A stretch of 64,000 bases of DNA, taken from NCBI GenBank assembly GCA_965208315.1, contig OZ242329.1, positions 3,136,500 to 3,200,499 of the forward strand. Reading direction: 5' to 3'. Numbering within the stretch: the stretch's first letter is position 1; each line of letters starts with the position of its first letter. Both the position numbers and the translations under genes were made by a program. Shown here in pieces: positions 35,167 to 42,055 of this stretch. The notes under the pieces are model-generated. The model saw nothing but the letters and a program-made list of their open reading frames with translations, made no database searches and was not told the origin of the DNA. The DNA is from Chloroflexota bacterium. Lineage in GTDB: Bacteria > Chloroflexota > UBA11872 > VXOZ01.

Positions 35167-35383
35167 GGCCGCTGTTCGGCGTGCCGCAATGGAAAGAGCC
35201 GGCTATTAGCATTAATCGAAGACTTTTCGAGGTAATTCGCCTGCCTCCGCTGTGACTTCACACTTTCTTCACAGTTCTTTGGTACCGTGCAAGATTATGG
35301 GTGGCAAAGTGTCCCGTGTGGTCATGCGTAGAAATCGAGAATGAGTGAGTAGCTGGTTCTGTGGTAAGAGGAGGGTTCAGGAG

Positions 35384-36865
35384 ATGGCATTAACGCGGCG
35401 TTCGTTTCTCGGGTTGGTCGGAGGCGTGCCGCTGGCGGCAAGCCTTGCGTCCGGCTGTGGCTTCTTTGAGGACTTGGTCGGCGGAGATTCCGGCGACAAG
35501 ACGGTCAACGTAGCGGTCTTCTTGCCACAAGGGCAGGGAGCGAACTTTCAGGCGGCGCAGGCCGGTAACATCCTGGCCGCTCTCCAGTCTGCCGCCAACG
35601 AGATCAACGACCAAAACCTCGGCTTCCAGATGGAAGTCAACCTCACTGTTGTTCTACCCGGCCCGAACCCTAACTTCGGAGCCTTCTTTGGTGGAGCAGC
35701 CAGCGCGCAACCCACGCCAACCCCGTTCAGTCCCATCGCCGAAACGTTGAGTGAGGCGGCGGCCAGTGGGGAATTGGACAGCGGCGATCCCCTGCCCGAC
35801 TTGCTAATGATCAGCAACATGGACGAATTGCCGCTGCTTTACTCCGAAGGCGTTATCGAGCCGTTCGACCAGGCAACCCGCGTTGAAGGCAGCATCGATC
35901 TCTCGGCATTCGCGCCCGGCGCGATGGAGTCTGTGAGTTGGCAGGGTCAAGTCATGGCCTTACCGCTTTCGAGCATCATCAACACGCTCACCTATGATTC
36001 AGATCTCCTTGCCAATGACGGCGTGGCGGCGCCCAGCAATCCATGGACGTGGGCGGAGATGATCGAGGCCGGCAAGCAGCTCACGTATAGCAACGATGAG
36101 GGTGCCCAATGGGGGACCTACGCCCACGCTTCGGTGCCACTGCTACTCAGCATGATTTGGAGTCATGGTGGCGATGTTTTTGGCGCCCAAGGAGGTGAGG
36201 TGCGCCTTGCCGACCCGCCAGCGATCAAAGCTATCGAGCTTTGGCGGGACATGATTGTCCGTCACCGCATTGCGCCGAACCCGCCGGCCGGCACCTTTGC
36301 CTTCATGCGCGCGGGCCGCAACGGCATGGAAGTGGTGAGTTTCGACCAACTGCCCCAGCGAGGCGGCGGTGGCGGAGGCGGCGGCACTCAGCCCACTGAA
36401 CGGGCACGCTTGGCTACCGCCGTGCGAACGGGCGGCGGGCAAGGCCTGGGTCCGGAACGCATCCATGCCGCGCCCATGCCGCTCAATGCGACGCAGGCCA
36501 CCTGGGTCGCGCCGGTGGCCGGGCTCAGCGTTGGCGCCCAGGCAAAGGACACGGGCCTGGCGGCCCAGGCGGCTGTGGTGCTCTCCCGCGAGCTCGCCCA
36601 ACTGCCCGTTACGTTCTTCGGCTACCCGGTCTACGGCGCCACCGGCGAGCGCATCAAGCAGGTGCGGCCGAGCCTGAGAATCGAGGACGCGAATATCATC
36701 GCGGAAGCGCTGCAATACAGCCGGGGCCTGCCGCCCCTCATCGCTCCCTACCTGGGATCGCTCTTCCAGCAACATCTCATGCAGCCGATTTTGAGCGGTG
36801 AAAGTACCGTCCTTGATGCCGCTCAGCAGGTGTCGATCGCCATGCAGGAAATGATGCGGCAGTAG
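35384..36865 (+). CDS. extracellular solute-binding protein (ABC, family 1), Tat/lipoprotein signal
   Basis: MALTRRSFLGLVGGVPLAASLASGCG. SBP-like body. An internal poly-Gly stretch is encoded by a (GGC/GGT)n run. AGGAGG RBS. Confidence 0.65.
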   Translation: MALTRRSFLGLVGGVPLAASLASGCGFFEDLVGGDSGDKTVNVAVFLPQGQGANFQAAQAGNILAALQSAANEINDQNLGFQMEVNLTVVLPGPNPNFGAFFGGAASAQPTPTPFSPIAETLSEAAASGELDSGDPLPDLLMISNMDELPLLYSEGVIEPFDQATRVEGSIDLSAFAPGAMESVSWQGQVMALPLSSIINTLTYDSDLLANDGVAAPSNPWTWAEMIEAGKQLTYSNDEGAQWGTYAHASVPLLLSMIWSHGGDVFGAQGGEVRLADPPAIKAIELWRDMIVRHRIAPNPPAGTFAFMRAGRNGMEVVSFDQLPQRGGGGGGGGTQPTERARLATAVRTGGGQGLGPERIHAAPMPLNATQATWVAPVAGLSVGAQAKDTGLAAQAAVVLSRELAQLPVTFFGYPVYGATGERIKQVRPSLRIEDANIIAEALQYSRGLPPLIAPYLGSLFQQHLMQPILSGESTVLDAAQQVSIAMQEMMRQ

Positions 36866-38852: not shown

Positions 38853-39386
38853 ATGCGTCGAAGTCTGTTCCGACTGCGCAGAAGTCTTGTCTTGATGGGT
38901 GTCGCGCTCATTGGGGCGATGCTTGTGTTGGCAGGGTGCAGCGTCGCCCAAGAATCCGACACTACGGCTGATGCCCCGGAGGCCAGCGGAGCCGCTATCA
39001 TCGAATACTTGAATGCGGCTGATTATCAGAACGCCTGGCAGCACCTGCCCGGGGTAGAGCCCATGTATACCGGGGGAGAGCCGCACGGCGCCTTGCTGAG
39101 CACGTATTTCAACGCGATCGCTCTGCAGGCGATTACCGACAAGGCGGGGAGCATTCCCGAAGGCGGCATGGTCGTCAAGGAGAACTACATGCCCGACGGC
39201 AAGCTGGCTGCAATCACGGTCATGTACAAGGCCGCCGGCTACGAGAATCCAGAAGCGAACAACTGGTTCTTCCTAAAGTATGCGCCTGATGGTGTGATCG
39301 AGGCCGAGGGCCCCGTCCAGGGCTGCACCGAGTGCCACGGCGACGTGCGCGACAACGACTTCCTCTTCACAGCGGATGTGAAGTAG
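38853..39386 (+). CDS. c-type haem lipoprotein, possibly cytochrome P460 / cytochrome c'-beta family
   Basis: Signal/lipobox MLVLAGCS. A single C-terminal CXXCH (CTECHG). Size about 177 aa, typical of P460 family members. Confidence 0.45.
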   Translation: MRRSLFRLRRSLVLMGVALIGAMLVLAGCSVAQESDTTADAPEASGAAIIEYLNAADYQNAWQHLPGVEPMYTGGEPHGALLSTYFNAIALQAITDKAGSIPEGGMVVKENYMPDGKLAAITVMYKAAGYENPEANNWFFLKYAPDGVIEAEGPVQGCTECHGDVRDNDFLFTADVK

Positions 39387-39447
39387 GTTAGCCATTCCCG
39401 GGAAGTGCGCGTCTCTCGCCGTGCACACCCTAAAGACGCCAAACACA

Positions 39448-39478
39448 ACGCCTGCGGGTGATTTGCCCGCAGGCGTTC
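39448..39478. terminator. bidirectional stem-loop terminator between convergent genes
   Basis: AACGCCTGCGGG-tgatttg-CCCGCAGGCGTT, a perfect 12-bp stem, flanked by short T-rich stretches on both strands. Confidence 0.5.
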
Positions 39479-39500
39479 TGCGTTTAATGAAGGTCTGTAT

Positions 39501-40052
39501 CTAGGCACGCGACAAAGTGGCAAGGGAAACCCTTGGTCCAACGAGTGTGTTGATAGCGATGTTTTCGTATTCTTCGCGCTTTAGTATCCGATCCGGCCCT
39601 ACCTTCACAAACTGCTTGTCAAATCTGGGAGATAATTTCTCGCCAATGCGGAAGTATCGGATGCGCATATTTGAGTGAGCGGTCTCATTGCCGTACTCAA
39701 TGTCGCAGACTGAACGGAGATACTCCAGAAACGGCAGTGACCGTCGCAACTGTTCTTTAGGTCCATTGTTGTCACTTAAGGTCTTCTTCAACTCCACAAA
39801 GATAGCGTACTCAATGCCATCAAAGGCATAGACTAGCAAGTAGTCGCAGATCCTCTTCCACGGGCCATCCTTGAGAACTGGCAAGTGACTCGACTTGCTC
39901 AGACGTATCGCAGCAACGGAAATGGATGGAGTAGACACGGTAACCTTCATTCTCGAATCCCGTTGACGTTCTCGGAGGCTGATGCTGCCATCCTTTTGAG
40001 GCTCTAGCACGTTTTGGGCTAAGACCTCTATCAGCCTACACCTCAGTGTCAT
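39501..40052 (-). CDS. small protein of the low-GC island; possible PD-(D/E)xK-like nuclease partner of the ATPase
   Basis: 183 aa. The start ATG lies 1 nt after the ATPase stop. AT-rich codon usage. FDGIEYAIFVELKK fits D-x9-E-x-K. Confidence 0.5.
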   Translation of the reverse strand: MTLRCRLIEVLAQNVLEPQKDGSISLRERQRDSRMKVTVSTPSISVAAIRLSKSSHLPVLKDGPWKRICDYLLVYAFDGIEYAIFVELKKTLSDNNGPKEQLRRSLPFLEYLRSVCDIEYGNETAHSNMRIRYFRIGEKLSPRFDKQFVKVGPDRILKREEYENIAINTLVGPRVSLATLSRA

Positions 40053-40053
40053 T

Positions 40054-41505
40054 TCACGCTTCCACGTCTTCTGTTAGTCGCGACGCTAGTTCGTTTGCTG
40101 CGGTATTGATTTGGTCGATCGTCTTGTCAAAGACCGGCATGTCAATGCCAAACGTGTCCACTTCGCATCGACGCAATGTGCTCTCTTCAGCGACGTATGC
40201 CCGCACGGATTCTGGCGCTAGAAAGTCATCCTCCTGGTATTTTAGCTTCTTGATAACATCTTTCTTATCCGGAAAGGACCTGCTAAGCATTATGAGGTTG
40301 TTGATCTCTTTGATTAGATAGTCACTATGCGTGGTTATTAGCACCCTCAAGCCGGCCCCCACACATCGTGCCAGCAGGCGTGCAAGTAGAATTTGATTTG
40401 CCGTGTCAAGATGACTCTCTGGTTCGTCGATGATGAGAAGGTGGTTATCCCGCGCAATGTGCCGAAAGAAGAAATACAAGTCAGACAAACCGCGCGCGGA
40501 TGATGACGCCCGGTGCAAAGGTATGGAAAAGCTCCGCTCCTTACGCGCTTTCGACCTGAATTGGATGTCATCACCCTTACTTCTGTAGTAACCTTCCATC
40601 ATGTCCTTGATATCATCAAAAAGCTTGTCTTCATAAAGTGCACTTCTCTCCCTTTCAAGATCGGCGATACTTCTGGTGTAGTCAATATTGTCCTTTATTG
40701 GAAGCGCGTAGCGGCTAGTGAAGGTATCTATCAGAGAAACCGGTGAGAAACGCTTTCTGTTCTTGTCATCCCGCATCATTTGTAGCCAGTCGACCAATCT
40801 ATTCTTGGTGAAGTCGAGTTCTTTGTAGAAAAGCGAAATACCAAAGCGCTCGGCAGATAGAACGAACGGGGTAGTGACGAGTTCCGGGAAGAGGAAATGA
40901 AGGTAGAGAGATGCGAGATACTCTACAGTTTCAGAATGATCCCACCGTCGGTTCTCAATGCCACTCCTTGCTAAAAGCAAAGACTCTCCATCATAGCGAA
41001 CCGAAAATGTGTCCCCGGCTTGATTTGTCGTTTTGACAACTCTACTACCTCTGGGAAAGTCATCACTCAACGCTACCTCAATTGATGCCCCTTCGAAGGC
41101 GCTGGTTGGCGAACTAAACACATCAGCCAGGGCAACTTCTGAGAAAGCATGCGTCACGGCCCCGGCCAGTAGGTGTCGCTCCTGATTGAGTGTATTCCAG
41201 TCGACGATTCGTCTAGCCTGCCCAAGTTCCATCACCTCTGTTGCGAGTCCTTCCACTATTAGGGAGCGCACTGAGGGATCATAGCGGGAGAACTCGTCCC
41301 CTGTGAGGAAGTACTCAACATCTGGCCATACTCTCCACATCTTTAGGAAGCCATAGAGCGTGTAGACCAGGTACGTCTTACCGGTGTTGTTGTGACCGGC
41401 GATCAATGTGAGATCGCCCAACTCGAGTTCGGCCTCGTTGATGGGACCAATCTTCTTGAAACGAAACTTCATCGGATTTGACGGTGAATTATCGTTAGCA
41501 GTCAT
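40054..41505 (-). CDS. ABC/AAA_21-type ATPase (SMC/RecF-like head, no coiled coil, no TOPRIM) of the low-GC island
   Basis: Walker A LIAGHNNTGKTY, signature-like ASSSARGLSDLYFF, Walker B/D-loop HLLIIDEPESHLD, H-loop VLITTHSDYL. An AAGGA RBS precedes the MTANDN ATG. GC is much lower than in the flanking DNA. Confidence 0.7.
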   Translation of the reverse strand: MTANDNSPSNPMKFRFKKIGPINEAELELGDLTLIAGHNNTGKTYLVYTLYGFLKMWRVWPDVEYFLTGDEFSRYDPSVRSLIVEGLATEVMELGQARRIVDWNTLNQERHLLAGAVTHAFSEVALADVFSSPTSAFEGASIEVALSDDFPRGSRVVKTTNQAGDTFSVRYDGESLLLARSGIENRRWDHSETVEYLASLYLHFLFPELVTTPFVLSAERFGISLFYKELDFTKNRLVDWLQMMRDDKNRKRFSPVSLIDTFTSRYALPIKDNIDYTRSIADLERERSALYEDKLFDDIKDMMEGYYRSKGDDIQFRSKARKERSFSIPLHRASSSARGLSDLYFFFRHIARDNHLLIIDEPESHLDTANQILLARLLARCVGAGLRVLITTHSDYLIKEINNLIMLSRSFPDKKDVIKKLKYQEDDFLAPESVRAYVAEESTLRRCEVDTFGIDMPVFDKTIDQINTAANELASRLTEDVEA

Positions 41506-41611
41506 TGCGCCAATCCTTGCATGGCGGCAGTGCGCCAATGGAAACAGAATGTGTCTTGCACAATGCGGAGCCTATCAAATATACAGTTCAATTCTAGCGT
41601 CTAAAGGCAAC

Positions 41612-42055
41612 TCAGCGCGCAGTGGCTTCTTTATTCAGCCTTGTGAAGAACTGCTTCATGAGCAGTTTGGCGGCTTGGGCCATGAGGCGTTGGCCGACGC
41701 GGGCCAGGGTGCCGCCGGCTTGGGCGTCGCCGGCGACGTGGATGGTGGTGACGCCAGGCTTCTTCTCGGCGAGAGAGAAAGTCCCTTCGCCTTTCACAAA
41801 ACCGGGTCCGCCGCTGCCTTCCACGATCATGCGGTAGCCGTGGGGCGGGTCGCGGTCGGCCACCGCCACCGTGCCCTGGTAGCGGCCTTTGATGCCGGCC
41901 ACGCCCACGTTCAGGGTGGCCGCGAAGGTGTCGTCGACTGTCGGTTCCAGCTTCTCGCAGCCGGGGATGCATACCGCGAGCACGTCCGGGTTTTGCAGCA
42001 ATGCCCACACGTGATCTCTGCCCGCTTTGATCGTGAACGTACCTTCAACCTTCAT
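41612..42055 (-). CDS. SRPBCC-family protein, CoxG-like
   Basis: MKVEGTFTIKAGRDHVWALLQNPDVLAVCIPGCEKLE is typical of CoxG. Confidence 0.65.
   Translation of the reverse strand: MKVEGTFTIKAGRDHVWALLQNPDVLAVCIPGCEKLEPTVDDTFAATLNVGVAGIKGRYQGTVAVADRDPPHGYRMIVEGSGGPGFVKGEGTFSLAEKKPGVTTIHVAGDAQAGGTLARVGQRLMAQAAKLLMKQFFTRLNKEATAR

Follow-up and report, generated by a model that had tools for sequence, protein, structure and literature searches.

PD-T4-4 is a validated two-gene defence system that protects Escherichia coli against phage and sits in the defence locus of an element resembling an integrative and conjugative element (ICE) (PMC9519451). The E. coli system (EcPD-T4-4) assembles into higher-order complexes, yet in vitro it left all 11 DNA substrates uncut (bioRxiv 10.1101/2025.07.10.664194). 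The WonAB operon of the Vibrio cholerae WASA-1 prophage (WonA, AWB73975.1; WonB, AWB73976.1), which its authors call similar to PD-T4-4, also protects against phages, and its ATPase motifs and nuclease lysine are all required. WonAB acts by lysis-independent abortive infection, in which translation stops and genomic DNA stays intact; the predicted docking site of WonB is formed by the dimerised C-terminal extensions of WonA, and WonB is toxic only alongside active WonA and has been proposed to target rRNA or tRNA (PMC12137116). PDC-M47 is a phage-defence candidate of PADLOC-DB v2, defined by computation only. Here, we describe a locus within a 64,000-nt stretch of Chloroflexota bacterium DNA (contig OZ242329.1, positions 3,136,500 to 3,200,499; hereafter the window, whose first letter is position 1), in which a low-GC cassette encodes an ATP-binding cassette (ABC)-type ATPase (gene A) and a small nuclease-fold protein (gene B). 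The cassette is probably an accessory two-gene anti-phage system of the PD-T4-4 family, lodged in a variable slot that directly follows coxG.

The gene pair matches the PD-T4-4 and PDC-M47 families

Gene A (40054..41505, minus strand) has an open frame of 40054..41538 that begins with TTG; its start is the ATG at 41505, which gives a product of 483 aa, one residue fewer than had been stated in an earlier note made from the sequence of this locus. The 483-aa product matches database entry P0121, annotated "AAA family ATPase [Chloroflexota bacterium]." Against the PADLOC model PDLC04033 for PD-T4-4_A, the protein scores 356 bits (E 1.1e-106), with residues 13-475 aligned to model positions 1-455 of 460. 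A second PD-T4-4_A model, PDLC04032, gives E 2.5e-66, and the PDC-M47A profile is matched over its full length at E 7.5e-88. The AriA, GajA, Old, and PtuA models cover only the signature/Walker B segment of A, with E 1e-18 or weaker.

All ATPase motifs quoted in the earlier note are present in A and invariant in 52 homologues. They comprise, on the minus strand, Walker A (GHNNTGKT, 41374-41397), the ABC signature (ASSSARGLS, 40483-40509), the Walker B/D-loop segment (LLIIDEPESHLD, 40405-40440), and the H-loop (TTHSDYL, 40315-40335); to these we add the SAERFG motif at 40840-40857 on the same strand. The residues that are invariant across the 52 homologues are G37..K43-T44, E219-R220, S334-S336/R338, D360-E361, H365-L-D367, and H393, and residues from about 57 to 205 form a hypervariable insert. 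Pfam assigns A to AAA_15/AAA_21 only and, in agreement with the earlier note, finds no TOPRIM domain; A has no coiled coil, and the locus encodes no Mre11/SbcD partner. In the AlphaFold model of A (predicted local distance difference test [pLDDT] 79, predicted TM-score [pTM] 0.81), the nearest solved structures are PtuA (Septu, retron Eco7/Ec78), followed by Rad50, SMC heads, and GajA. Gene A thus belongs to the ABC ATPase clade of the defence/SMC-Rad50-OLD type. To our knowledge, there is no solved structure of PD-T4-4 or WonAB.

Gene B (39501..40052, minus strand; 183 aa) is of the PDC-M47B type and follows gene A across a TGA-A-ATG junction with a 1-nt spacer, so the two-gene minus-strand operon described earlier stands, and B is translationally coupled to A. 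Two PDC-M47B models match B at E 5.5e-8 (30.7 bits) and 2.3e-5. Across the B family, PDC-M47B models match 66 of 66 members; PD-T4-4_B matches 25 of the 66, with a best E of 2.8e-7. For B, the sole Pfam match is to DUF7627, well under the cut-off (E 0.17), and searches of NCBIfam and PDB sequences returned nothing. Low scores and missed family members suggest that the existing PADLOC models barely reach this B subfamily.

Conservation in B concentrates in three segments on the minus strand: C69-D70-Y-L (39837-39848), E87-L-K89-K (39783-39794), and E100-Q-L-R-R-S-L-P107 (39732-39755). In the alignment of the 66 family members, C69, E87, L88, Q101, L102, R103, S105, and P107 are invariant, and conservation reaches 90% or more at E28, D70, Y71, L72, K89, K90, and E100. 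Because of this conservation, we read the catalytic motif as D70-x16-E87-x-K89. The D-x9-E-x-K motif suggested previously is right as regards E87-x-K89, which is conserved; its aspartate, D77 (in FDGIEY), is variable across the family and sits in a hairpin turn, and the conserved acidic residue is D70. The predicted structure of B (pLDDT 85, pTM 0.86) has D70 opening strand 71-77, E87-x-K89 within strand 80-91, and E100/Q101 in helix 98-120, and the model accordingly presents a PD-(D/E)xK restriction-endonuclease fold with the canonical arrangement of the conserved D and E-x-K. Fold neighbors of the model are McrC, NgoMIV, Bse634I, and FokI, and also the dual DNA/RNA nucleases Can2 and Card1; a Foldseek search against viral structures (BFVD) gave nothing at E ≤ 1e-3.

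The link to experimentally validated PD-T4-4 comes from plasmids. A tblastn search recovered full-length relatives of A, about 26% identical, on E. coli and Klebsiella plasmids. In three E. coli examples, the ATPase gene is followed after a gap of 1-13 nt by a gene for a 198-210-aa hypothetical protein, and PADLOC recognises these as genuine PD-T4-4 pairs, with scores of up to 862 bits for A and 357 bits for B. Profile alignment with hhalign of the window B family to the three E. coli PD-T4-4_B proteins gave E 1.2e-6, 1.4e-4, and 9e-4. The aligned segments pair CDYLLV with CDLVLI, VELKK with LDLKSK or FDQKSK, and EQLRRSLPFLEYL of the window family with IQLENSRLFISYM of E. coli PD-T4-4_B, placing C-D, (D/E)-x-K, and Q-L/I-x-x-S in register. 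Since the profiles align in register, B is taken to be a distant homolog of PD-T4-4_B with the same catalytic core. The pair is very probably a member of the PD-T4-4/PDC-M47 family.

The cassette occupies a variable slot downstream of coxG

In a blastn comparison with a related contig (L063), homology ends at the coxG stop codon (41612) and picks up again at 39480. The variable segment is therefore 39481..41611, a cassette of 2131 bp that consists of a leader, the ATPase gene, the nuclease gene, and a 20-nt 3′ tail. Its GC content of 0.489 is the lowest of 1152 windows, compared with 0.605±0.015 for all other 2131-bp windows (z = −7.9). The earlier note had called the island much more AT-rich than its surroundings; the drop is there and amounts to 11-12 points. 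GC content at third codon positions (GC3) is 0.55-0.58 in the A-B pair and 0.72-0.79 in the flanking genes. Codon usage bears out the earlier claim in part: AAT, TTT, GAT, and AAA are about twice as frequent in the cassette as in the flanks, but the AAA/(AAA+AAG) ratio is unchanged (0.23 versus 0.22), and the strongest shift is in AGA, about 8-fold.

The order coxG, A, B is kept in relatives of this Chloroflexota clade, and the outer flanks differ among the relatives that keep it. In every clade member, the GC content of the pair is 0.46-0.49 (GC3 0.51-0.58) and that of the flanks is 0.58-0.64 (GC3 0.72-0.85). In two closely related contigs (L061 7541-8379 and L063 7539-8377), the very same slot is filled by another cassette, which lies on the opposite strand. 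It encodes a 183-aa SocA_Panacea antitoxin (E 1.5e-12 and 2.8e-15) and a 93-aa, weakly ParE-like ORF. The flank is PepM3 in L061 and P460-Crp-ThuA, as in the window, in L063, and the cassette boundaries in the L061/L063 comparison are sharp. Thus, the pair is an accessory occupant of the slot. The earlier note had named coxG-syntenic orthologs at native GC as a finding that would speak against defence; synteny is present, and native GC is absent. Synteny does not refute a defence role, because the GC content is not native and close relatives hold different cargo at the same position.

Another related locus (L062 6843-9445) was considered as a decayed pseudogene copy and rejected: coxG, A, and B are each split across frames. 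As coxG is frameshifted too, the frame breaks are most likely assembly indel errors. The breaks in this long-read contig also advise caution for gene calls from such assemblies.

Alleles are exchanged at the slot

Divergence of the pair is discordant with that of its surroundings. Between the related loci L003 and L005, the flanks are 87-94% identical with synonymous divergence (dS) of 0.50-0.63; A and B are 65% and 54% identical, respectively, with dS of 1.7-1.9. Over the comparisons in which flank dS is 0.5-0.6, the values for A and B run from 1.7 to 2.3. The window A is 86% identical to the A of L005, but the window B is only 55% identical to its B. For the window versus L001, B has a dS of 0.19 and DNA identity of 94-99%, and the flanks have dS of 0.39-0.94, with coxG at 82-89% DNA identity. 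When DNA identity is followed along the locus in sliding comparisons, it breaks close to the A/B junction and also within the N-terminal insert of A. These data show that A and B alleles are exchanged at the slot, and the breakpoint positions suggest that the nuclease gene moves as a module of its own, independently of the ATPase gene. On account of the GC deficit, the alternative cargo, and the discordant divergence, we consider the slot to be a variable hotspot whose alleles and cargo are turned over by recombination.

The ratio of nonsynonymous to synonymous divergence (dN/dS) is 0.10-0.29 throughout A and B (0.11-0.18 in A); therefore, both genes are functional and under purifying selection. 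Positive selection on B was considered and rejected, as dN/dS is at most 0.29 and recombination accounts for the pattern. A more speculative proposal, which we regard as doubtful, is that, inside the PD-T4-4/WonAB superfamily, the PDC-M47-type nuclease makes up an effector class with a function of its own and is swapped as a module between ATPase alleles by recombination at the A/B junction, with the slot acting as an integrase-free, recombination-driven hotspot for defence and toxin–antitoxin cassettes in sponge-type Chloroflexota. Should B turn out to be an RNase that is licensed by the ATPase and aimed at a new target, a separate mechanism would have to be recognised for the subfamily.

Distribution and linkage of the pair

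An exhaustive profile search yielded 722 representatives of the B family after clustering at 50%, and 152 of these had E ≤ 1e-30; the corresponding search with the ATPase gave more than 2700 matches at E ≤ 1e-10. We assessed linkage on reference contigs at one genome per species, among which 49 loci encode a B relative. These loci span at least 12 phyla or classes, including Chloroflexota (with Dehalococcoidia and Caldilineaceae), Latescibacterota, Gammaproteobacteria, Acidobacteriota, Dadabacteria, Poribacteria, Binatia, Spirochaetia, Gemmatimonadota, and Thermodesulfobacteriota. In 48 of the 49, gene A directly precedes B and shares its strand, and the pair has a lower GC content than its flanks in 48/48 loci, by 4-19 points. 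There is no conserved third gene: the most frequent neighbor occurs in 6 of 45 loci. Recurring neighbors are a Type III restriction Res subunit (six loci), an N6/N4 DNA methylase (four), and an MNT-type nucleotidyltransferase (three). coxG was rejected as a third component; it has native GC, the cassette edge falls exactly at its stop codon, and it stands beside the pair in only three of the 49 reference loci, all in the Chloroflexota clade, being absent from the other 46.

Members of the family also occur on mobile DNA. In the P2-like Vibrio phage 1.202.O (NC_048066.1; L064 3001-5032), a PD-T4-4 pair (PADLOC: A 614 bits, B 63 bits) lies between the repressor and integrase genes. This pair is annotated merely as "AAA family ATPase" and "hypothetical protein." On several 4-5 kb Col-type non-mobilizable plasmids of E. 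coli and Klebsiella (L059, L060, and related ones), the PD-T4-4 pair is about the sole cargo beyond replication functions. Many hosts of the subfamily belong to taxa typical of marine-sponge microbiomes, such as Poribacteria, Dadabacteria, Latescibacterota, Binatia, and Caldilineaceae (bins CAR2 and RHO2); judging by these names, the organism of the window may be a sponge-associated Chloroflexota.

Profile matches, fold, pairing across phyla, and cargo replacement agree on a horizontally spread two-gene module of defence type, as the earlier note had proposed. Its further suggestion that the system might be new or an undescribed variant does not hold: A is a full-length PD-T4-4_A/PDC-M47A match, and B is of the PDC-M47B type and a distant homolog of PD-T4-4_B. 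The locus extends a defence family validated in E. coli and Vibrio to uncultured Chloroflexota and at least 11 other phyla or classes. Such systems are probably undercounted in environmental genomes, because the partner nuclease is invisible to Pfam and NCBIfam and marginal in PADLOC. The locus is also a clean natural case of an integrase-free variable slot, with identical flanks enclosing either the pair or a Panacea toxin–antitoxin cassette, and is useful for the study of defence-repertoire turnover; it reveals no new kind of system.

Proposed mechanism and alternative explanations

By analogy with WonAB and E. coli PD-T4-4, A would dimerise via its nucleotide-binding sites and keep B in complex. 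The best candidate for a sensing surface is the hypervariable insert of A (about residues 57-205), which may recognize a phage cue; ATP binding or hydrolysis would then license B, and B would cleave nucleic acid, halting the infection. Since WonAB leaves DNA intact and EcPD-T4-4 cut no DNA substrate, we favor such an ATPase-gated nuclease that aborts infection, with RNA a somewhat likelier target than DNA. The fuller version of this model, in which RNA is attacked, translation is shut off, and infection is aborted without any restriction of DNA, is a tentative choice to which we would give somewhat less than even chances. That the pair works in phage or mobile-element defence in its host, by whatever route, is likely.

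Several points weigh against an anti-phage system of this family. The window is no defence island: the pair has only housekeeping genes for neighbors, with neither an integrase nor a tRNA gene close by. The coxG-A-B order persists in relatives whose B proteins are 90%, 68%, and 55% identical to that of the window, and clade synteny of this sort would, taken by itself, fit a resident gene. The window B scores weakly against the PD-T4-4_B hidden Markov model (HMM) (E 0.045), a B relative at 46% identity has no PADLOC match at 1e-5, and the equivalence of the window B and PD-T4-4_B effectors is deduced from a distant sequence relationship. PDC-M47 was mentioned in no indexed paper in our literature search. 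As to mechanism, dimerisation and complex formation, the sensing role of the insert, and the substrate of B are all argued from analogy.

A reading within the same family takes the pair for a restriction-like DNase that protects directly and without abortion, cutting the DNA of the phage but not that of the host. The closest folds to B are those of the DNA enzymes McrC, NgoMIV, Bse634I, and FokI; some A-B loci adjoin Type III restriction-modification genes; and in the work of Vassallo et al., seven of 11 systems with DNA-binding or DNA-cleavage parts, often PD-(D/E)xK-like, gave direct immunity (PMC9519451). However, EcPD-T4-4 left all of its DNA substrates uncut, WonAB combines intact genomic DNA with translation shut-down and an abortive phenotype, and Can2 and Card1, which act on both DNA and RNA, are among the fold neighbors of B. 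We therefore rate a plain DNase as unlikely. The pair might instead be a selfish, addiction-like module, with B as the toxin and A as its controller and with no real part in phage defence. That 4-5 kb Col-type plasmids carry little cargo other than relatives of the pair, that the alternative cargo of the same Chloroflexota slot is a Panacea-type toxin–antitoxin pair, and that overproduced WonB is toxic are all in keeping with this idea. Yet the toxicity of WonB needs active WonA, which rules out simple antitoxin sequestration, both PD-T4-4 and WonAB are phage-protective in experiments (PMC9519451, PMC12137116), and the chromosomal slot offers no mobile backbone to stabilise; addiction without defence is thus an improbable account.

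Two further explanations were weighed. One joins a known ATPase type to a partner unrelated to any described effector, and so makes the system undescribed. Pfam, NCBIfam, and PDB sequence searches were indeed uninformative for B, its PADLOC score is low (30.7 bits), and a close family member escapes PADLOC entirely; but every B family member matches PDC-M47B and 25 of the 66 match PD-T4-4_B, the catalytic core is in register with bona fide E. coli PD-T4-4_B, and operon layout and protein sizes are those of E. coli PD-T4-4, which leaves very little room for this view. The other would have a housekeeping, Rad50/SbcC-like ATPase and nuclease for DNA repair, resident beside coxG, and could appeal to the coxG synteny across the clade, the purifying selection on both genes, and the presence of Rad50 and SMC heads among the structural neighbors of A. 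A resident repair function is scarcely credible given that a toxin–antitoxin cassette replaces the pair in close relatives, its distribution across phyla is patchy and its neighbors unrelated, the GC deficit recurs in 48/48 loci, the dS of A and B is discordant with the flanks, coiled coil and Mre11/SbcD partner are missing, and a defence-family HMM matches A over its full length.

Neighboring features of the locus

The genes on either side are those named in the earlier note. coxG (41612..42055, minus strand), which anchors the upstream edge of the slot, encodes a 147-aa COXG/SRPBCC protein (Pfam COXG E 1e-24) and has the native GC content of 0.64. The downstream flank is a Cytochrome P460-like gene (38853..39386, plus strand; Pfam Cytochrome_P460, PF16694, E 3e-11), also at native level (GC 0.60).

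The leader of the pair (41506..41611, minus strand) is borne by the cassette: it is conserved among A-B loci (the window, L003, and L005), and in the Panacea-cargo loci L061 and L063 the sequence is unrelated from the first base past the coxG stop. It contains an AAGGA ribosome-binding site at 41518-41514, 8 nt ahead of the gene A ATG. A candidate promoter, TTTAGA-16-TATATT at 41605-41578, comes from a consensus scan; the call is weak, since the counts of promoters and terminators in that scan do not exceed shuffle expectation. The scanner also missed the hairpin described next.

Between the convergent P460 and B genes lies a GC-rich hairpin (39444..39480) with 15-nt arms and a 7-nt loop (ΔG −36.5 kcal/mol, z = −4.7). 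The hairpin is also found in L063, which lacks A-B, with a compensatory stem change from CTGCGGG/CCCGCAG to CTGTGGG/CCCACAG; the covariation supports a real structural element. Kept with this change in L063, the hairpin is part of the conserved P460 flank and not of the cassette. The strong terminator that had been reported after the operon thus corresponds to a component of the flank rather than the island, and it likely terminates both the P460 and B transcripts.

A tRNA scan of the window and an Rfam scan of 30-50 kb gave no match, and hence there is no tRNA-linked integration site. Direct or inverted repeats on either side of the island were also sought; only short matches at chance level turned up, nothing att-like. 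Farther from the cassette, the segment 36909-37229, between the solute-binding-protein gene and ThuA, falls locally to a GC content of about 0.51. Several separate places in related contigs match it, in both orientations (L001 4305-4750, 10826-10878, and 13370-13401; L062 5149-5259, 6603-6734, and 11716-11749), and it looks like a short dispersed repeat resembling a miniature inverted-repeat transposable element. The solute-binding-protein ORF (35345..36865; 506 aa) has a GC peak of 0.69-0.71 in its C-terminal part, at 36200-36800.

Comparison with known systems

Septu PtuAB, PARIS AriAB, Gabija/OLD, and AbiL/RloAB are built on the same ABC-ATPase clade as A. The Septu, PARIS, and Gabija/OLD models cover A in part, with matches at least 80 orders of magnitude weaker than that of PD-T4-4_A. 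Their effectors differ as well, being HNH in PtuB and TOPRIM/DUF4435 in AriB, GajA, OLD, and RloB, whereas B is predicted to be of the PD-(D/E)xK type; Pfam, NCBIfam, and PADLOC found no HNH, TOPRIM, or DUF4435 in either A or B. By these profile comparisons, the pair is none of Septu, PARIS, Gabija/OLD, or AbiL.

WonAB and the "OLD-ABC ATPase + novel REase" operon class likewise join an ABC ATPase with all six motifs to a small variant PD-(D/E)xK nuclease; WonB is smaller, at 16 kDa. A relationship of the window pair to WonAB is presumed from the published likeness between WonAB and PD-T4-4. The window pair and PD-T4-4 share a two-gene layout, with an ATPase gene (about 460-485 aa) and, after a gap of 1-13 nt, a gene for a PD-(D/E)xK protein (about 180-210 aa); A matches PD-T4-4_A along its whole length, the catalytic cores of the B proteins align, and both systems reside on mobile or variable DNA. 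The differences from the E. coli prototypes are that the window A is about 26% identical to them and scores best on PDLC04033, that B has 183 aa rather than 198-210 aa and carries E87 where the E. coli proteins have D, and that the pair is chromosomal in an uncultured Chloroflexota, outside any ICE, prophage, or plasmid backbone. The type of system has thus already been described, and the pair is not a new kind. PDC-M47 provides the best joint assignment, in that both A and B match their PDC-M47 profiles, and the pair is best filed under the PADLOC PDC-M47 subtype of the PD-T4-4 family.

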